Sequence record: KY435490
Direction: 5' to 3' (one strand)
DNA: 44,246 nucleotides
DNA from: Escherichia phage K1E
Below the pieces are notes generated by a model. It ran no database searches. It was given only the letters and a program-made list of their open reading frames with translations, and was not told the origin of the DNA. This document shows positions 23,650 to 44,246 of the stretch, in pieces (position 1 is the first letter of the stretch; each line of letters starts with the position of its first letter). Position numbers and translations under genes: made by a program.

Positions 23650-24120
23650 TTAAATATCCTCATCAATACATTCGTGACGATGCTTCTGGAATAGCTCTTT
23701 GTAGTAGTCTGCTTTCTTCAGATCTTCTTCCGTGTTGAATTTCTTCCCTGCACGCAGACGATACTTCAAAGCATTACCCATGCAATATCCAGCAAATTGC
23801 TTCTCGGTCATACTACGAGCAATGATAGTGATTGCCTCTACCCCATCGAAGAACTCATAGTGCTTAGGCTTAGTAACCATATTGTTGTCCAACGTGCTAG
23901 GATCTTCATCTTGCAATGAGTCAACAACCTTGAAGTAAGGTGCATACCATTCGCGCTTCTCAACACCTTCTAACATAATAGAGTTATAATTAGGTTCTGC
24001 ACGGGATACTTTGAATACCCCATCTGGTTTCTTGCCTAGGCTTTCACACAGTTTATTCCAGATGGCATCTCGGTAAGCTGCACGGCGTACGACGTATTCG
24101 CCAATATAAATCTTTGACAT
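23650..24120 (-). CDS. Hypothetical protein (156 aa)
   Basis: ATG at 24120 after GGAGG; promoter upstream at 24177..24194. Confidence 0.55.
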   Translation of the reverse strand: MSKIYIGEYVVRRAAYRDAIWNKLCESLGKKPDGVFKVSRAEPNYNSIMLEGVEKREWYAPYFKVVDSLQDEDPSTLDNNMVTKPKHYEFFDGVEAITIIARSMTEKQFAGYCMGNALKYRLRAGKKFNTEEDLKKADYYKELFQKHRHECIDEDI

Positions 24121-24176
24121 AATTAATTCCTCCATTCACTATACAATCAAGGGTAAGCTAATACCTACCCTTTGTT

Positions 24177-35587: not shown

Positions 35588-35716
35588 TTAGAACTCCCAC
35601 GCAGCGCGTTTAGATGCACGGTCACGGACAGGTTTATTCAGCTTCTTGCCTTTCGTCTGCCCTTCTTCCATGTCAAAACGGTTAGCTTTACGGGTCATCT
35701 TCTCAAAGTTACGCAT
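35588..35716 (-). CDS. T7 gp1.1-like small basic protein (42 aa)
   Basis: MRNFEKMTRKANRFDMEEGQTKGKKLNKPVRDRASKRAAWEF resembles T7 gp1.1; GGAG RBS. Confidence 0.6.
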   Translation of the reverse strand: MRNFEKMTRKANRFDMEEGQTKGKKLNKPVRDRASKRAAWEF

Positions 35717-35747
35717 GGTTAAAATCTCCAAAGTGAGTTAGTCTTAT

Positions 35748-36051: not shown

Positions 36052-38679
36052 TTATGCGAAACAATAGTCTGAAACTAAGATTTCGTTAAGGTCAAACTCT
36101 CCTTGCTCTGGTACTTGGATTCCGGTGTCTACTAACCAACGCTCTTCGTGCACATCTAGCAGGTTTTGCAGGGCATTATGGTTTTGATACATCTTAACCA
36201 TTTCTTCCCTTAAGCTATCCCGCAGGTCTGCGGTACGTCCTGCATGAGTACCGAAAGAATCATGGATGACTGCAATGGATGTAATACCTTTATCCACTAG
36301 GTCACATACAGTCAGAATCAGGTGGCTAGCATCGTGACCATGGACGAAGTTAGGAGCAGCCGCACCCATCATTGCCGTTTCATCAACTACATCTGTTTCA
36401 ATCTGGAGACTCATCTTGATTTCACCCATCAAGCAAGTGGATACGCGGAGCATATCGGTAGCCATTATCTTTTGTTGCAAGATGAAGCCAGTTGGTAAGG
36501 GATATTCTAAGCCTTCGTTTCTTTTAGCTGCGAAACGTGCAAGCTGACGAATCATTTTCATTGCCACTATAGGAGCTTTAACCACTTCCGAAATAGAAGG
36601 CCAGATTAAAGCTGTCATATAGTTATAAGCTGCGCTAGGTGTCAGGCTATCTTTGCGGTCATTATCAAAAGGATGTACAGGATTGGCGGTACGCCCTTCC
36701 GCAATAGCCCGTTGGGCCTCTTTTTCTTCCAAATCAACGATATAATCAATCACTGACTCACGGCAGGTTAGACGTGTGCTGCCGTAAGGTAGTGTCATTA
36801 CGGGCTTTTTGGTCAGGCCGCGAGTGATTCCTATCATATCCCACGCACTAGCCATGCTACGCAGTTCCGCACCTGTTAAAGTCACGCTGCCAGAAGTGAA
36901 GGTTTCCGCATCCTCTGCATTCATGTATGCATAATTCTTCTGAATTACTACCTGCGCAACGGCACCATAAATATCTTGAGGGGAGTCAGAGGGCTTAAGG
37001 TTTACCGCTTTCGCACCTACTGCATCGCGTAGCATAGCACTGTAGTGCTGGATACCAGAACAACTACCATCTTGATGGACTGGGAGGTGCGTCATGAATT
37101 GGTCTTGCGTGCCTTCATCCAGTGCATCCAGATAACGCGCATATTCAAAGCACCATGCAAGGAAGCCGTAAGGGGAGTCGGCATTTACCCATTGAGTGAA
37201 GGTCAGCGGATCCGCTGCAATGTCGCGGCACATGTCTTGAAATTCACTATCCAGCACGTTAGCGGTGCGCACGTCAAAAGTTTTCTTATCCCAACCCCAG
37301 TTATTAGCCCCGTTCACCAAAAACCACTTAAGCGCCTCAGCGCTATCAAGACGCTGCCCTTCGGTAAAACGGAGCAATGCCTTGCCTAAGTCGTTTGATT
37401 GCGGAGAGAGCGTGCTAGATTGCGCGTAGACGCGGCTGCGGCTGTCCAGAGCATACACGAAGTATATTGCGTCAAATTGGCTGTATTTACGGGCCTGCCC
37501 TACCATGCGGACGGTCGCCGCCGATTTGCTGCCGCGCTTAGTCTCAGCGGTATACAGCTTGGTGCATTCACCTTTCCAGTTGATGAAGGCTTGCCATTGT
37601 TCCGGTGTTAACATTTCTTTCAGTTCACGGCCTCGCAGGTGCTGGAACTCTAACGGCACCGGATTAGCTGGCTTGTTCTCGCGGTCGATGAGTGGTTTGA
37701 AGGAAGGTACGCCATAGCCTAAATCAAGCCGTATTACGTCCTCAACAACCTGTAAAACTTCCTTGTTAACCTGCCATTTAGTCGCCTGCAAAGCGTTAAC
37801 AGCCTTGTAAACCGCTGGCATTTGCTTTTTGGTCAGCTTGCGGACGTGTTCACGGCTGCCTTTAACAAGACGCACACGACTTGCTACCTTCTCAGTGTGA
37901 AAACCGCCATTAAAAGGAGAAACCCACGGACGCGGAGGTATAACGCAAGGTGCATAAGCCGGGCTAAGTTGCGCTACATGTTCTTTAAATGCTGTAATCC
38001 ATTCCCCTACGTGTTCACTGGTCTGTAAGTAGTAAACGCCATGCTTGCCACCATTAGTGCGCAAGGTGCGAAGAAAGACAGGCTGACCATTGAAGAATAC
38101 ACTATTTTCCAGTATTTCTAGCAAGGTCATACCGATTTGTAGCAAGGTATCTTTAGGCCATGCCTCCCAACGGGAGAAATCCGCGTCACGGTCAGCAACA
38201 GATTTCTCAGCTACTACCGCTACGTTGTGCGCATGACGATAAGATTTAGTCTTGCTAGCCTTAAGCGACTTCTTCACTTTCTCAAAGTACTTAGCTGCGT
38301 GACCTTCCAGCTTGCTAAAACGTACTTGGTCTTCGATGCGGTCCGCTACATTCATAGCGATTGCTTGTAAGGTAACGTCTGTATTCAGCATATCCATAAC
38401 GATTTTCATCGTGATATATGCTGCCACTTCGTTTTCTACGCAGTTAATGAAAGCTAATGCACGCGGTGCACGACCTCTTTTACCTTCATACTCTTCCTTG
38501 TATGCCTGAATACCTTCAGCCATTGGCGCGATTAACTCGGACAATAAGCGGCGATTCCATGCCGTGTCTGATTCATTACCGGATGCAATCTGGCGTTGTT
38601 GGTCCGCTTCAAAGCGACGGATACCGCCGTTAAACATTTCTTCTTCAAGTTGAAGTTGAATAGCGTGTAGGTCTTGCAT
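36052..38679 (-). CDS. DNA-directed RNA polymerase, single-subunit, SP6-type
   Basis: 875 aa; [32 protein letters not shown]... closely resembles SP6 RNAP; motifs [40 protein letters not shown]; C-terminus ...DYCFA. Confidence 0.97.
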
Positions 38680-38742
38680 CTTGTTTACTCCTAGTGAAAG
38701 AAACCTTAATAGGTGACACCTAAGAAGATGCCACCGATAAGG

Positions 38743-39627
38743 TTACTTAGTTAATTCTTCTACTGCCTCAGAGATTAAGGGCCATGCTTCATGGCCTTCG
38801 CCGTAGCCTAGCTTAACCAGTTCGCGGCGTGCCTTGTTAACTGCTGTTTTCTTCGTTGCCTCCTCAGCGCTTAAACCTAAGCGAGCATAGAAGCAGGAAG
38901 ATTTGAATTGCGGCAGCATAGGCGCGGCTGCCTTCTTGCTTTCGCGTGCGCTACTTAAGGAGGCGATGCGGTCATTGGCTGCCTGTAATTGCTCGGTCAG
39001 TGCCTTAATTTGTGCTAAGAGGCTAGCCATAGCGGTGTTTTCGGTATTAGCCGTGTTATCCAGCGGCGCTGCCTTTGGCGCTTCCGGTTTGCTTTCCTCT
39101 TCCCAAGGTGCTGATTCGTCGGCCTCCTGCTCGCTCGCGGGTGGCACTACCTGCGGCGCTTGCATTTCCTGTGATTCTGCGGACTCAGTCGCGTTCTCCT
39201 GCGGTTTTACTGTCTCAGCCTTAGATTGTACCGTTTCGGCCTTTGACTCTTTCTTAGGTTCAATCAGGGCGTTTACGGCATTAGTGTCCAGCTTGCCATC
39301 TGCGGCGAGTTCTGCGGCCTTCTCCATGATTATATTTTCATCAGCGAAAGGAACAAGCGCCAGCATTACACGCATCGCCACGCCTTTAAAGCGATCATCG
39401 CCTTCAAAGACACGGGCTACACTCATCAGCTTGTAACATTGTGCCTTCTTAATGGCAAACTCTGCTTCAACATAGGCTAAAAACTCTTTTTGACCTTCAA
39501 AGTCTCCGCGTAACTCATTCAGACAAGCCCCTACTTTGATGTAAGAAGTGCCAATATTGTCTAAATGTTGCTTGATTTCAGCGGTTGCAGCTTCACGGAC
39601 AGACACGAGGGTGTTTTCAGTAGTCAT
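38743..39627 (-). CDS. Hypothetical early protein (294 aa) with a central acidic low-complexity region
   Basis: ATG at 39627 after AAGGTGA; sits at the T7 gene 0.7 position but has no kinase motifs. Confidence 0.65.
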   Translation of the reverse strand: MTTENTLVSVREAATAEIKQHLDNIGTSYIKVGACLNELRGDFEGQKEFLAYVEAEFAIKKAQCYKLMSVARVFEGDDRFKGVAMRVMLALVPFADENIIMEKAAELAADGKLDTNAVNALIEPKKESKAETVQSKAETVKPQENATESAESQEMQAPQVVPPASEQEADESAPWEEESKPEAPKAAPLDNTANTENTAMASLLAQIKALTEQLQAANDRIASLSSARESKKAAAPMLPQFKSSCFYARLGLSAEEATKKTAVNKARRELVKLGYGEGHEAWPLISEAVEELTK

Positions 39628-39690
39628 AGTAATCACCTTATATAGTGTAAGTAAATATCACATAGCCCACTCAGGTAGGCTATAGGCTAG

Positions 39691-39876
39691 TTACTCTTTC
39701 CATAAGTGTCTTAGTGTTTTGTTGCAGTACTCGTAGGTGTTGCTCTTGCTGCACAAGTTGAACTTTTTGGCCCAGTCTTGCTGGGCTTGTTCTACTTTAT
39801 AAGCGTCATAACCAGCTTTAGCGGTAAATGCCAGAGCAAGAGAAGCCAACAAGAAGCATCCAATCAAGGTTTTCAT
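39691..39876 (-). CDS. Small secreted protein (61 aa, N-terminal signal peptide)
   Basis: MKTLIGCFLLASLALAFTAKA... signal peptide; AGGAG RBS. Confidence 0.5.
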   Translation of the reverse strand: MKTLIGCFLLASLALAFTAKAGYDAYKVEQAQQDWAKKFNLCSKSNTYEYCNKTLRHLWKE

Positions 39877-39944
39877 AATCTCAACTCCTAGTAAGTGAAA
39901 GTTTAATCAGGCGCTACCGTAGCAACGCCTTGTTAAGTCTTCTC

Positions 39945-39962
39945 TTATAGTGTCAGCTAAAT
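39945..39962 (-). promoter_or_regulatory. Promoter-like sequence (ATTTAGCTGACACTATAA) upstream of early genes and the RNAP
   Basis: Close to the SP6 consensus but with A at +1. Confidence 0.35.
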
Positions 39963-40068
39963 AGCTTGTATGTAGTTCCTAGTACTTCCTCACGAATCTG
40001 CGCAAATCGTAAGGAACATTTCAGGGTTACACCGTCTGAGAAGATAAAGTTATATTGCCTTTCCATCT

Positions 40069-40425
40069 TTATTCTTCCTCCTCTTCTTCTGAATCCTCAG
40101 CGGAATCGATGTACGCATCAATCATATCTTGAACACGTTCCCATAAATCAATGGTGAGTTGTTCATAAATACGGGCTTGTAGTACGACCGTCACATCCTT
40201 AGTGTCTGGCATTAAGCCAGAATCCTCGAAGAAGTGGTCGATGCCTTCACTGGCCATCACCGAGAAGATGTCAGCATAATAGATTGGTACAGCACTATCC
40301 GCCACCTCATGGATTGCATCATGTGCGTTATCGATACAATCAATAGCATCATCCCAGATACGTTCAACTAATGCAGCATGAGCGGTGTTGTAAACCTGAG
40401 AGTAAGTCATATTAGACATAGCCAT
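40069..40425 (-). CDS. ocr: Ocr-like DNA mimic (T7 gp0.3 homologue)
   Basis: MAMSNMTY...[44 protein letters not shown]...[15 protein letters not shown]... strongly resembles T7 Ocr; ATG at 40425 after GAGGA. Confidence 0.85.
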
Positions 40426-40846
40426 GTTATTAATCCTCATTTAGTTAGTTAGGTTACATTATAGGAGACTCAAGAGAATCTCCTAGGTTTAACCTATCCA
40501 GACTAAGAAGCGACTACCCATATTGTTAAAGAGCGTGGCTTGTGCTTGATAGGCTGGCTAGTGCCAGCCTTATCTTTCCTACTTAATTGCAGCCTTACAT
40601 GACTGTATCCAATGCTCCACGGCATCTGCCAAGTTGTCATACACCATAGCAGCTATTCCGTGATTCACTTCATACTCTTCGGAAGATACTTAGTTATGCT
40701 GATACTTACGCCGTTGATTGTAGTGGTAACGATTAAAGTTTCCATGATAATTTACCTTTCTGTTAGTAAGCCTATCAAGACACAAACCAGATTGTTAAAG
40801 GGCTAGGTTAGTGCCTTGATAGGCCAGCTATTAAGCTGGCTTATTG

Positions 40847-41059
40847 CTACAATTCTCCATCATTCAGTGCTTTAAGCCATCTGTAACCAGTGGCCTTACT
40901 CACATTAAGATACATGTTACAGAAGTCCACGAACTCATCATGTGTTGGCTGTTTGTCTGCCTTATAGTGTGCAAGCAGTACAGCCATCTTCTTGATAATC
41001 CGCTTCTCTTGTTTCTCACGTTCCATGCGTAATTCGTGAGCGATGTCGCAGTAGTTCAT
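40847..41059 (-). CDS. Hypothetical early protein (70 aa) with a C-terminal HTH-like segment
   Basis: ...VSKATGYRWLKALNDG. Confidence 0.45.
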   Translation of the reverse strand: MNYCDIAHELRMEREKQEKRIIKKMAVLLAHYKADKQPTHDEFVDFCNMYLNVSKATGYRWLKALNDGEL

Positions 41060-41342
41060 AGTTCACCTTAGTAAGTAGTTAGCCTACCAAGCACTAGCCC
41101 GATTGTTAAAGAGCTAGAGATTAGACTCGCGGGTGTGCTGCCATCCTTACGCTATTGCTATCCATAACTGGGCTATAAAGCTGGGCAATCCTTTTGCCAC
41201 CAGTTTAATTGTGGGAAAGCCTCCTTGTCCCTCACACCGATACTCCCGGCCTAATCTCTATTGTTAAAGAGCGTGATGTTTAAAGACGTCGCCGTCTTGA
41301 TGCTTAATGTAACCTTGTATGCCGTGGTTGTCAATAGTTAAT

Positions 41343-41567
41343 TTAGAGATTTGTCGTGATTACTTCATCGTAATCATAATCTTCACTACCTAGATACTCA
41401 GTAATGACTTGGTTGTCATACTCAGATACTAAGGTAACTCGGTGGTATTCAGTGTCGTAATCTAGTAGGAAGTGATGTACATCAACACCTACGCCAGCTT
41501 GTAGCATATCATCGTGGAAGCGAATAGCTTCGCTAGATGATTCAAAAAATACCTCATGTTGATACAT
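41343..41567 (-). CDS. Hypothetical early acidic protein (74 aa)
   Basis: Start overlaps the upstream stop (TAATG). Confidence 0.45.
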   Translation of the reverse strand: MYQHEVFFESSSEAIRFHDDMLQAGVGVDVHHFLLDYDTEYHRVTLVSEYDNQVITEYLGSEDYDYDEVITTNL

Positions 41568-41746
41568 TATTTACCCTCCCTCAATTCATCTATCATGTTA
41601 CGGTATTGATTAACTGTATCGGTCCAACCTTCGTTAAGGAATCGGTGATACAAGGCTAACTCATCCTCCGTAAGTAATTCGTTGTTACGAATCATGTAGC
41701 ACAACAGAGTGAAGAGAACGGACAGTTCACGGTTATTTAATGTCAT
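41567..41746 (-). CDS. Hypothetical early protein (59 aa)
   Basis: ATG at 41746 after AGAGGGTG. Confidence 0.4.
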   Translation of the reverse strand: MTLNNRELSVLFTLLCYMIRNNELLTEDELALYHRFLNEGWTDTVNQYRNMIDELREGK

Positions 41747-41960
41747 GATTAGCACCCTCTTTAAGAACTTTGATAATGCGGTTATATGCAGTACCTGTAA
41801 TAACTAACTTCTTACCCATCTTAAGATCAATATAGTGCAGATACTTAGGCGAATAATCATAGTTATCTGGTGTGCGCATCTTACATAAGTCATAACCTTT
41901 ATCGAGGAAGTGCTGAATCTCATCAACTGGCATGTTGTACGCTTTTACTTGTACTTTCAT
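41733..41960 (-). CDS. Hypothetical early protein (75 aa), first gene after the terminal region
   Basis: ATG at 41960 after GAGGGA. Confidence 0.45.
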   Translation of the reverse strand: MKVQVKAYNMPVDEIQHFLDKGYDLCKMRTPDNYDYSPKYLHYIDLKMGKKLVITGTAYNRIIKVLKEGANHDIK

Positions 41961-42183
41961 AGTTAATCCCTCATTCAATAAGTAATTAACCACGGCATAC
42001 ACAGGTTACACTAAGCAAATTGTTAAAGAGCATTGCGCTAACCTTGGTTTATCGTGGTAGGTTATGCTTGCGCCATCTTCCACTATCTAACATTGTTTAA
42101 CGGCTTCAGTAGCTAGGCCGGATAGTTAAGGACGCTCTCTATCATTCACCCTGAGTGTTTAATGTCGCTCCCGACTGATTGCT

Positions 42184-42212
42184 AATGTATACCTGTTAAC
42201 TGCCTATGTCAA
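42184..42212 (-). promoter_or_regulatory. Candidate host sigma70 early promoter (TTGACA-N17-TACATT)
   Basis: Perfect -35 hexamer and 17-nt spacer on the coding strand, about 220 nt upstream of the first early gene. Confidence 0.4.
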
Positions 42213-42259
42213 CACTAAATTTAACTAAGATAGATTATTTATGTGATACATGTCACAAC

Positions 42260-43095
42260 TACTAAGATAAACCTAGGTTGTCTAACATGTGAGACTAAGG
42301 AAAGCAATAGATACAGAGCTAGGATAGACTAGGTTGGCTAGGTTTCTGGTGTTCCTCCTACTGCATCTTATTACTATTACTTCTTATTAGCGGTCTACCG
42401 ACCGCGACCTAATTGCATCTTATAGCTTTAGCTATGCAATCACTAAGATCTGGCACTAAGACTAACTAAGGTACACTACTAAGTTGATACTAAGCTAAGC
42501 ACTAAGGCTTTAACTAAGGTAGCCCACTAAGGCTAACCTAAGCCATCCATCAAGGAATAACCTAAGGTACACAAGCGCGGTGAGTGTAGCGTAACGTAGT
42601 GGAGCGAAACGAACAGATAGCCCACCCACGCCCACCCTGTCAAACGCTCAGGAATGGCCCTAAAACGGCCTGTGTAAGCCCTAAGCGGTTGCACTAAGGC
42701 AATCACCTTGTCCAATACTAAGGCGTGCCCTAGCGCTTCCTAGGCGTTCTCCTTGTGCAGCCACTAAGAGCAGACCTCGGCAAGCCCTAGGCCACCCGTC
42801 GAAGACGGACCAGCCCAGCCCAATTCCCAAGCCAACCGCAGCGCGGCCCCATATGGGGGAAATCCGGCGAGGGCGAGGGCGAGACACCTCACACACGCCT
42901 ATATCAAAATTTTGACTTTGGTTACTTTGTGAGCGACCTCCGTATCTTCTCGTCCCTTATTTGGTCTTCACTAAGAATGTACCTCTTACGACCTAGGACA
43001 TCACTGAGTATACACAACAAAGATAACATACCTACACCCTCCTTTGATGGCACTAAGAGCAAACCTAGGTCTGCCCTTGTGTACACTAAGATATT
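42260..43095. repeat. Terminal-region repeat arrays of (C)ACTAAG(G)/CCTAAGG short motifs flanking a GC-rich island
   Basis: About 17 copies of ACTAAG in a noncoding stretch; analogous to T7 CCTAAAG arrays beside the terminal repeat. Confidence 0.5.
42280..42295. repeat. Palindrome-like GTCTAACATGTGAGAC (copy 7, one mismatch)
   Basis: In the terminal noncoding region; its flank is an inverted copy of the copy-5 flank. Confidence 0.45.
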
Positions 43096-43102
43096 AACCT
43101 GC

Positions 43103-43252
43103 TTAAGCAGAAGATGCAGAAGGTTTCTTCAAGGCACGACGTTGTACATCCTTGGCAATGGCGTATGCCTGCTTAGGGTCACGTCCTGATTGAATAAGTT
43201 CTTCTGCGTTCTGGCGTACAGCAGCTTGCTTAACTGATTTTATTAGTGGCAT
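43103..43252 (-). CDS. Possible small basic protein (49 aa) overlapping the last 23 nt of the endosialidase gene
   Basis: ATG 4 nt after GAGGAG; MPLIKSVKQAAVRQNAEELIQSGRDPKQAYAIAKDVQRRALKKPSASSA; below the ORF-track size cutoff. Confidence 0.2.
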   Translation of the reverse strand: MPLIKSVKQAAVRQNAEELIQSGRDPKQAYAIAKDVQRRALKKPSASSA

Positions 43253-44246
43253 ACATCTCCTCTAATTTATCAAGACGATGGCGAGTATAGGCAGCCTCTA
43301 GGATTAGAACTTCACTATATCTCACACCGTACCTACCTTCTTCGAAGGACACAATTCCATACTTAATGGCATCTAACCCTTCATCTTCAAAAGCAGCTAC
43401 AATATCCTGAGCCAAGACACCGAAGTGTATGCTATCAAGGTTCCTCTCTGCTTCACTATTCAAACCATACTGTTTAAAACCAACCCTGCTCCAAGCCTTT
43501 AACACCTTGGTATTAATACTAGAGATACCGTACTTGTGGTCAGCATCTGAAGTTGTAACAGGGTCACTGCCTAGGTAGATGGTAGTGAATCGGTTACTAG
43601 GCCCCCCAGCAGCAAACTGGTTATCTACAGCAGGCATGATTGGTGCACCTTGGAATAGGTGCTCATTTCCGTTATAAGTGATACGCTTAGCCTTACTTGA
43701 ATTAGAGCCGTGCAAAGTTATCTGTGCACCTGAAGAGGACGAAGTCTTTTCTCCACCACAAATAATCAAACGTTGACCAGTTGGGTTGTCCTTTGGAACA
43801 GACTTACCAATAAAGCCATATTCACCTTCCATCTGCACTTCAGATCGTATATTGGAACTTGTGCTTGCTTTAAGTGTTAAGTGTCCAACTTTAGTATCCT
43901 CTGTAACAATGTTATCTGAGAAATACAAAGGTGCAGAGATATTTCGTATTCCATCAGTACCCATGAAAGTAGGTATAGCTTGACCCGGAGTTGCACCATA
44001 TGTAAACTTACGAGATACACGATTGTCATTTGCAATCTGCATCTTATAGCAGTATATATCAGTAGGGTGTCCATGACCTTTAAATGGGTCTTTATCTTTG
44101 TTGTCACCATAAGTCATTGGGTTGAAATGGTTTTCACCACCAAAGATATAGTAAATGTAGCTGTCTTTAACTACAACAGAACCTACACCTACACTAGAGT
44201 TCACAATGTCACCTTGATAGATTTGGTCTGTGATGTTAACCCATTC
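43230..44246 (-). CDS. Endosialidase tailspike, C-terminal part (same gene as 1..1651; 44015..44246 duplicates 1..232)
   Basis: Track ORF 43230..44204 is open up to the window end; frame matches the N-terminal segment after removing the 232-bp duplication. Confidence 0.88.
   Translation of the reverse strand, partial: EWVNITDQIYQGDIVNSSVGVGSVVVKDSYIYYIFGGENHFNPMTYGDNKDKDPFKGHGHPTDIYCYKMQIANDNRVSRKFTYGATPGQAIPTFMGTDGIRNISAPLYFSDNIVTEDTKVGHLTLKASTSSNIRSEVQMEGEYGFIGKSVPKDNPTGQRLIICGGEKTSSSSGAQITLHGSNSSKAKRITYNGNEHLFQGAPIMPAVDNQFAAGGPSNRFTTIYLGSDPVTTSDADHKYGISSINTKVLKAWSRVGFKQYGLNSEAERNLDSIHFGVLAQDIVAAFEDEGLDAIKYGIVSFEEGRYGVRYSEVLILEAAYTRHRLDKLEEMYATNKIS

Follow-up and report, generated by a model that had tools for sequence, protein, structure and literature searches.

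The window, by which we mean the whole 44,246-nt stretch of DNA analysed here, represents a circularly permuted Vectrevirus genome of the K1E-like type, given as its reverse complement. Its first 25 kb share 92-96% nucleotide identity with K1E, ULINTec4, vB_EcoP_C and other Vectrevirus genomes, and an endosialidase tailspike is annotated within the region matched to K1E-like genomes. The 875-aa RNA polymerase (RNAP; 36052-38679) is 98.9% identical to that of K1-5 and 85.0% to that of SP6, compared to 35.5% for T7, and the SP6 promoter core ATTTAGSTGACACTATA occurs 13 times with up to three mismatches, against 0.44 occurrences expected, 12 of the matches being on the minus strand. A first-pass annotation of this DNA had called the polymerase and the promoters SP6-type, and both comparisons agree with it. 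The polymerase, the promoters and the collinearity with K1E and K1-5 place the phage in the SP6 group, in the genus Vectrevirus of the subfamily Molineuxvirinae.

The ocr gene is found on the minus strand near the leading end of this genome (Table 1). Nucleotide 1 of K1E aligns at about 42884, which is probably the physical left end, and the ocr start is about 2.46 kb away from it. The approximately 450 nt next to the left end (42440-42884, minus strand) do not code for protein and are crowded with short CTTAGT(G) repeats, and this stretch ends in the first strong sigma-70-like promoter (42212-42184); the region considered here as the permuted end also takes in 42885-43100.

The genes that flank ocr are small. 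Gene 4 is syntenic with gene 4 of K1E and K1-5 and with 'SP6 protein 4', and it is probably translationally coupled to ocr. Gene 5 (39691-39876, minus strand; 61 aa, with a signal-peptide-like N-terminus) is a second variable cassette near ocr; it is 100% conserved in K1-5 and ACG-C91, gives way to an unlike sequence in K1E, where nucleotide identity is 38-68%, and is absent from vB_Ec-G9. Directly upstream of ocr there is a 55-aa gene (40579-40745, minus strand), a homologue of ACG-C91 gp50 (METLIV...CKAAIK), which is split into ORFs of 26 and 29 aa by one missing T at about 40686. The missing T is the sole difference from ACG-C91 across 181 nt, and the split gene is either a true frameshift pseudogene or an artefact of sequencing or assembly within a run that contains T.

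Table 1. Features of the ocr locus, with their positions in the window
Feature	Position	Strand	Remarks
First SP6-type phage promoter, ATTTAGCTGACACTATA	39946..39962	-	0 mismatches; downstream of ocr and gene 4
Gene 4	39953..40066	-	37 aa, PHROG 11746; starts 2 nt after the ocr stop
ocr coding sequence	40069..40425	-	118 aa plus stop TAA (40071-40069), read from the second ATG
Shine-Dalgarno GAGGA (40438-40434) with overlapping, non-initiating upstream ATG (40440-40438)	40434..40440	-	GAGG-N9-ATG spacing
10-bp RNA hairpin in the ocr leader, UAGGAGAUUC-UCUU-GAGUCUCCUA	40462..40485	-	Conserved; candidate processing or stability element
BoxA-consensus motif in the ocr leader, GCTCTTTAACA	40524..40534	-	Exact match to GYTCTTTAANA
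8-bp GC-rich hairpin just upstream of BoxA, AGGCUGGC-ACUA-GCCAGCCU	40551..40570	-	No T-run on the coding strand
Nearest strong sigma-70-like promoter, TTGACA-17-TACATT	41306..41334	-	10 of 12 consensus positions

The Ocr protein

The 118-aa product read from position 40425 matches the Pfam family PF08684 ('DNA mimic ocr') with 142.6 bits, compared to a cut-off of 25 (E = 6.3e-42), and covers positions 1-100 of the 101 in the profile. Its residues 1-117 fall on positions 1-117 of PHROG 2568 ('ocr-like anti-restriction'; E = 1.2e-49). A search that included T7 gp0.3, the check proposed in the first-pass annotation, gave a full-length alignment without gaps between the same residues and T7 Ocr (PDB 1S7Z and nine other entries; E = 1.1e-41), in which 76 of 117 amino acids (65%) are identical.

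The AlphaFold2 model of the protein, built with 40 homologues, had a pLDDT of 89.1 and a pTM of 0.81, with helices predicted at residues 8-25, 35-45, 50-58 and 78-117. When this model was compared with the PDB by Foldseek, Ocr chains alone were retrieved at E < 1e-3 (TM 0.80-0.92; rmsd 0.8-1.9 Å); no non-Ocr structure in the PDB matched significantly, and the next match had an E value above 1. The predicted structure is thus the all-helical Ocr fold with its long C-terminal helix. Together with the profile and sequence matches, this confirms that the ORF belongs to the Ocr family, with a similarity far beyond chance, and the clear homology to T7 Ocr that had been claimed for it is real.

The extreme negative charge typical of DNA mimicry by Ocr is present as well. 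There are 29 aspartate and glutamate residues against 4 lysine and arginine residues, giving a net charge of -25 and a computed pI of about 4.05; the corresponding counts for T7 Ocr are 34 and 6, with a net charge of -28. The window protein keeps 24 of the 34 acidic positions of T7 Ocr and has gained four new ones, while the other ten have been replaced (D13N, E17A, D27A, D30C, D33N, E65F, D97R, E99Q, E104A and E108S).

The residues at the dimer interface are unchanged. F54 and the interface segment ADIFSVMAS are the same in the window protein and in T7 Ocr, and the interface residues of the homodimer helix that carries F54 and A58 are likewise those of T7; the window protein would presumably form a dimer. 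F54 is nearly invariant in our alignment of the Ocr family. It has been reported to be conserved in 93% of the family, and its mutation affects both dimerisation and sensing by the PARIS system (PMC9122126). The differences from T7 Ocr are centred on residues 9-34, where 8 of 26 residues are identical, and on residues 96-117, where 8 of 22 are, whereas residues 1-8, 35-63 and 67-95 are 86-100% identical. With tips that are only about 31-36% identical and 10 of 34 acidic residues replaced, the target spectrum of the protein could differ from that of T7 Ocr.

The minus-strand ORF has two in-frame ATG codons, at 40440 and 40425, before its stop codon, and the first-pass annotation had preferred the second because of its ribosome-binding site and a T7-like N-terminus. 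Both of these points were borne out. The N-terminus read from 40425, MAMSNMTY, is the same as in T7 Ocr and SP6 gp5, and a GAGG stands 9 nt before this ATG, with the same spacing as in T7 gene 0.3. The first ATG overlaps this Shine-Dalgarno sequence and lacks a separate ribosome-binding site; the matching ATG in the leaders of K1-5 and K1E is out of frame with gp3, and it is missing from SP6 and T7. In addition, the PHROG 2568 profile begins at the second Met, and ACG-C91 is annotated with the 118-aa form, although vB_Ec-G9 is annotated with a 123-aa form from the first ATG. For all these reasons we place the start at 40425. Fixing the start, and with it the length of 118 aa, is a gain for annotation, since some GenBank records give 123 aa from the first ATG.

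Predicted early expression and the ocr leader

Because the first phage promoter is downstream of ocr, and no match was found upstream of the gene on the coding strand in our phage-promoter scan, ocr is probably a class I gene, read by the host RNAP. It is near the leading end and precedes both the RNAP gene and the first phage promoter. The early transcript of ocr probably comes from the sigma-70-like promoter at 41306-41334, the sequence of which is conserved in K1E, K1-5, ACG-C91 and G9, and the coding strand from 41306 to ocr showed no terminator-like site. The number of sigma-70-like matches (8, compared to 8.3 expected by shuffling) is not above chance, and we kept as putative promoters only the two that agree with the consensus at 10 of 12 positions and are also conserved in relatives.

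The leader of ocr is strongly structured, its minimum free energy fold having a z score of -5.2. In the alignment of seven SP6-like leaders, 91% of the cells of the 10-bp hairpin pair, and the unpaired cells are mostly from the misaligned SP6 row; compensatory changes were found at two pairs (GC/AU/GU and GC/CG/UA/UG). There is a structured RNA at the equivalent place in T7, where its RNase III site R0.3 is located, and the ocr leader may be processed by RNase III at this hairpin. The second, GC-rich hairpin is conserved in the leaders of K1-5, G9 and ACG-C91. An Rfam search of 38600-43300 found no curated family, and its one match, to a microRNA, was below threshold (22.9 bits, with a gathering score of 97).

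The motif GYTCTTTAANA in the leader is the consensus of bacterial BoxA (PMC5725501). Four exact matches to it occur in the window, all on the minus strand, compared to 0.26 expected, and none of 100 shuffled sequences reached four. They are located at 40524-40534, 41104-41114, 41262-41272 and 42021-42031, with a degenerate fifth copy at about 40793-40803; all four are within the 2-kb early region presumably transcribed by the host polymerase, and each of them precedes a small early ORF. K1E, K1-5, ACG-C91 and G9 have conserved the motif, and in T7 a single copy stands ahead of gene 0.3. The T7 15-mer ACGCTCTTTAACAAT, which is located between promoter A3 and gene 0.3, is the same as in the window leader. 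This set of motifs suggests Nus-factor antitermination of the early operon, or the motifs may be parts of RNase III sites. We also looked for a common secondary structure in the five intergenic elements with BoxA, and rejected it, as the shared part is the motif GC(T/C)CTTTAACAAT alone and the flanks cannot be aligned.

Comparison with known Ocr proteins

The claim that an Ocr in an SP6-like phage is noteworthy did not hold. Proteins annotated as 'ocr-like anti-restriction' are present in RefSeq at the same locus in SP6 (gp5, 119 aa), K1-5 (gp3, 110 aa), K1E (gp3, 108 aa) and ACG-C91 (gp48, 118 aa; 'similar to T7 protein 0.3'), and an annotated homologue stands at this place in dozens of Vectrevirus records. 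In a tblastn search, 571 phage records had an Ocr homologue, and for 45 of these the protein is at least 90% identical to that of the window. In the literature, an anti-restriction role for SP6 gp5 was proposed by Scholl et al. 2004, as cited in PMC4837284, and the Vectrevirus phages SHAK7163 and SHAK7704 have been reported to possess an Ocr-like product with high similarity to T7 gp0.3 (bioRxiv 10.1101/2024.01.12.575291). In view of the annotation in four reference genomes and of this prior literature, the ocr of this genome is an already known gene and an ordinary feature at its usual place. The homologues of SP6, K1-5 and K1E have carried such an annotation from the publication of their genomes onward, and finding one here opens no new question.

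The closest relatives are G9, ACG-C91, UTI89UKE2, UTI89UKE3 and SHAK7704, which have the same allele at the same locus in the same backbone. The protein of vB_Ec-G9 (EcG9_047) is 100% identical over residues 1-111, and that of ACG-C91 is 98% identical, as is the one listed for UTI89UKE3. UTI89UKE2, UTI89UKE3 and SHAK7704 show 98-99.5% nucleotide identity across the region, with 99.5% for SHAK7704. The records of G9, ACG-C91, UTI89UKE2 and UTI89UKE3 annotate the product as 'ocr-like anti-restriction' or 'protein Ocr'.

SP6 gp5 and gp3 of K1-5 and K1E share locus, family and presumed role with the window protein, and the leaders of K1-5 and K1E are nearly identical to that of the window up to the start codon, but the alleles are different ones. 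SP6 gp5 is 60% identical to the window protein. For gp3 of K1-5 and K1E the identity is 50-54%, and these shorter proteins (108-110 aa) lack about nine residues of the C-terminal helix. The K1-5/K1E allele is more similar to gp0.3 of T7-like phages, with 80-85% identity to K1F, which is K1-specific, EcoDS1 and related phages, and 83-85% for K1F and the Kayfunavirus phages.

In comparison with T7 Ocr, the likeness extends to length (117 aa in T7 and 118 aa in the window), the N-terminus, the interface segment, the identical LMPDTKDV... core, the acidic C-terminal tail, a pI of about 4 and the predicted fold. The genetic setting is also alike, in that ocr is an early gene upstream of the RNAP gene, with a leader containing BoxA, a hairpin and GAGG-N9-ATG. 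However, the backbone of the window is of the SP6 type, residues 9-34 and 96-117 are only about one-third identical, and the acidic positions have partly been exchanged. Moreover, 0.3 is the first gene in T7, whereas several small early genes precede ocr in the window. A further comparison can be made with ArdA of conjugative elements, an acidic DNA-mimic dimer that inhibits type I restriction-modification (R-M) enzymes in the same manner as Ocr (PMC2731889). ArdA is of an unrelated family and fold, and searches with the window protein gave no sequence or structural match to it.

Proposed function

T7 Ocr inhibits type I R-M enzymes (EcoKI and EcoBI) and BREX, in the latter case through BrxX/PglX, and it triggers PARIS (PMC11842806; PMC9122126; PMC12455610; bioRxiv 10.1101/2023.04.06.535777). 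Our literature search found no experiment on any Vectrevirus Ocr allele, and these activities are known for T7 Ocr only. By analogy, we suggest that the window gene would work as follows. The host RNAP would read ocr from early sigma-70 promoters before the phage RNAP gene is reached, and the early transcript, with a leader carrying BoxA and a conserved hairpin, would be translated from ATG 40425. The small, very acidic and presumably all-helical product would dimerise and mimic bent B-form DNA, and the dimer would fill the groove in which type I R-M enzymes, and likewise the BREX methyltransferase BrxX/PglX, bind DNA. In this way, the unmodified phage genome would be protected from both defences. 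Like T7 Ocr, the window protein would probably also be sensed by abortive systems that are triggered by Ocr, such as PARIS, and it is likely a PARIS trigger.

The genome contains 3 EcoKI, 8 EcoBI and 3 EcoAI sites, all downstream of ocr. We considered whether type I sites are avoided upstream of the gene, but 0 sites in the leading 2.5 kb, compared to 14 elsewhere, is not significant because only about one was expected there.

As a standard anti-defence gene, ocr is relevant to the choice of K1-specific therapeutic phages. If the analogy with T7 is correct, a phage that carries it should withstand type I R-M and BREX but be sensitive to hosts with PARIS-type systems.

Probable allele exchange at a fixed locus

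Taking the evidence together, we put at roughly 0.9 the probability that the ORF is ocr, of the T7 gene 0.3 family, in a Vectrevirus of the K1E-like type, and that it encodes an early, host-transcribed DNA mimic at a fixed locus where alleles have been exchanged with T7-like phages. The first-pass annotation had suggested modular acquisition of early anti-defence genes. That suggestion stands in so far as it concerns the exchange of Ocr alleles at a fixed locus, since the drop in identity to K1-5 is limited to the ORF, and it fails as a recent capture from T7, to which the gene is only 64% identical in nucleotide sequence. In bins along the alignment with K1-5, the 120 nt that precede the start codon show 86-100% nucleotide identity. 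This falls to 33-66% over the ocr ORF and is about 90-100% again from the ocr stop to the RNAP gene, with one bin at 81%. The difference between the window and K1-5 thus appears to be an allele replacement that is precise to the ORF. Several other alleles are found in the same kind of genome. Two that are about 70% identical to the window protein (P0014 and P0016) are also on SP6-like contigs, and in a neighbor-joining tree the alleles from backbones of about 40 kb and about 44 kb are interleaved, with at least five Ocr lineages in SP6-like genomes, although the deep branching of this tree, built on about 100 residues and without bootstrap, is uncertain. No allele with 80-90% protein identity to that of the window was found in the phage collection, and a large protein database adds one allele in this gap (87%, on a 44-kb contig). 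The window allele is the commoner of the two Vectrevirus types that we counted, with copies of at least 90% identity in 45 phage records, compared to 24 for the K1-5/K1E type. These observations are fairly summed up by an Ocr locus that stays in place while old and divergent alleles are shuffled among the Autographiviridae.

Two other histories have to be weighed against this reading. If Ocr had been inherited only vertically from the common ancestor of T7-like and SP6-like phages, evolving slowly under strong constraint and never exchanged, we would understand why the locus is syntenic in both subfamilies, where it belongs to the first gene cluster and precedes the RNAP gene, and why the core is under purifying selection, with 85% amino acid identity to T7 in residues 35-95 while 62% of the conserved codons differ. 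However, the RNAP of the window and K1-5 is 98.9% identical while their Ocr is 50% identical, and the nucleotide divergence is confined to the ORF. K1-5 gp3 is 83-85% identical to gp0.3 of K1F and EcoDS1, SP6 gp5 is 77% identical to T7 Ocr, compared to 60% to the window allele, and the Ocr tree is incongruent with the backbone size class. The precise mosaic boundary largely refutes purely vertical descent, which we regard as improbable. The opposite history, in which this phage recently captured ocr from T7 or a close relative, is more improbable still. It would fit the finding that, when the 116 minus-strand ORFs were compared with T7 by tblastn, Ocr came out closest to T7, with 68% identity in its local alignment and the terminase, portal, DNA polymerase, RNAP, tail and helicase proteins at 25-35%, and the first eight codons are 96% identical to T7 in nucleotide sequence. 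But over the whole gene 53% of the codons for the same amino acid differ from T7 (62% in the conserved core), and with 64% nucleotide identity this argues against a recent import from T7; the divergence of the window allele from T7 appears to be old. The listed copies with at least 90% identity (45 records) are all in Vectrevirus-type genomes of about 44-45 kb, with T7 next best at 65-70%, and the leader and flanks are Vectrevirus sequence common to K1-5. No T7-like phage (about 40 kb) with a gene 0.3 more than 90% identical in nucleotide sequence was found in 50,697 phage records, nor was such a donor present among the matches listed from a search of 5.8 billion proteins. We also considered the movement of leader and gene as one block from T7 and rejected it; the blastn matches are limited to codons 35-96 (70%) and the initial 27 nt, and there is no evidence for such a transfer because the leader cannot be aligned to that of T7 apart from the BoxA 15-mer.

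A further alternative is that the allele has a shifted function, in which the Ocr fold is kept while the diverged tips change binding or sensing, for example by evading PARIS, EcoR22I or Ronin, or by making host RNA polymerase or some other DNA-binding protein, instead of type I R-M enzymes, the main target. The concentration of the differences in the two tips, next to a core that is 86-90% identical, points in this direction, as do the loss of ten acidic residues of T7 and the many distinct alleles at one locus, as would be found under diversifying pressure. Systems that sense Ocr, and an escape mutant with the single-residue change F54V, are documented (bioRxiv 10.1101/2023.04.06.535777; PMC9122126). 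Nevertheless, F54 and the entire dimer-interface segment are unchanged and the net charge is still -25. Stephanou and colleagues reportedly found in 2009 that T7 Ocr tolerates the loss of many acidic residues, which also counts against a shift. On balance, we consider a shifted function unlikely, though clearly less so than either of the two histories discussed above. As a speculation of about the same standing, the ocr locus could be a hot spot for swaps of whole ORFs with T7-like phages, in which recombination is anchored by gene 4 and by the BoxA, hairpin and Shine-Dalgarno sequence of the conserved leader. The window-type allele, with its dimer core kept and its tips (residues 9-34 and 96-117) remade, may have been selected because it alters which defences are blocked or which sensors (PARIS, EcoR22I or Ronin) respond. 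With at least five divergent alleles, exchanged with ORF precision, at a single locus of genomes that otherwise hardly differ, these phages offer a natural panel for testing defence inhibition and sensor evasion against sequence.

Other observations

Two more small proteins of the window resemble accessory proteins of T7. A 161-aa protein (23650-24135, minus strand) shares 61% identity across 84 aa with the C-terminal portion of T7 gp1.7, a nucleotide kinase, and a 47-aa protein (35588-35731, minus strand) is 57% identical to T7 gp1.1, compared to 25-35% for the core proteins. These T7-like small proteins suggest an accessory-gene pool common to both subfamilies.

Some Ocr ORFs in GenBank and RefSeq are labelled 'protein kinase' or 'serine-threonine kinase' (OR424384, KMB14; OL964749, T7; NC_047939, YpP-Y; KP791807, E-4). 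This label is probably a mis-annotation propagated from the neighbouring T7 gene 0.7. In phiA1122 (P0061), a 140-aa Ocr is fused to a different C-terminus. Within the early region of the window, an 89-aa ORF (41733-42002, minus strand) read from GTG 42002 aligns to its PHROG family from residue 15 onward, and its real start is therefore probably ATG 41960 (MKVQVK...), which is preceded by GAGGGA.
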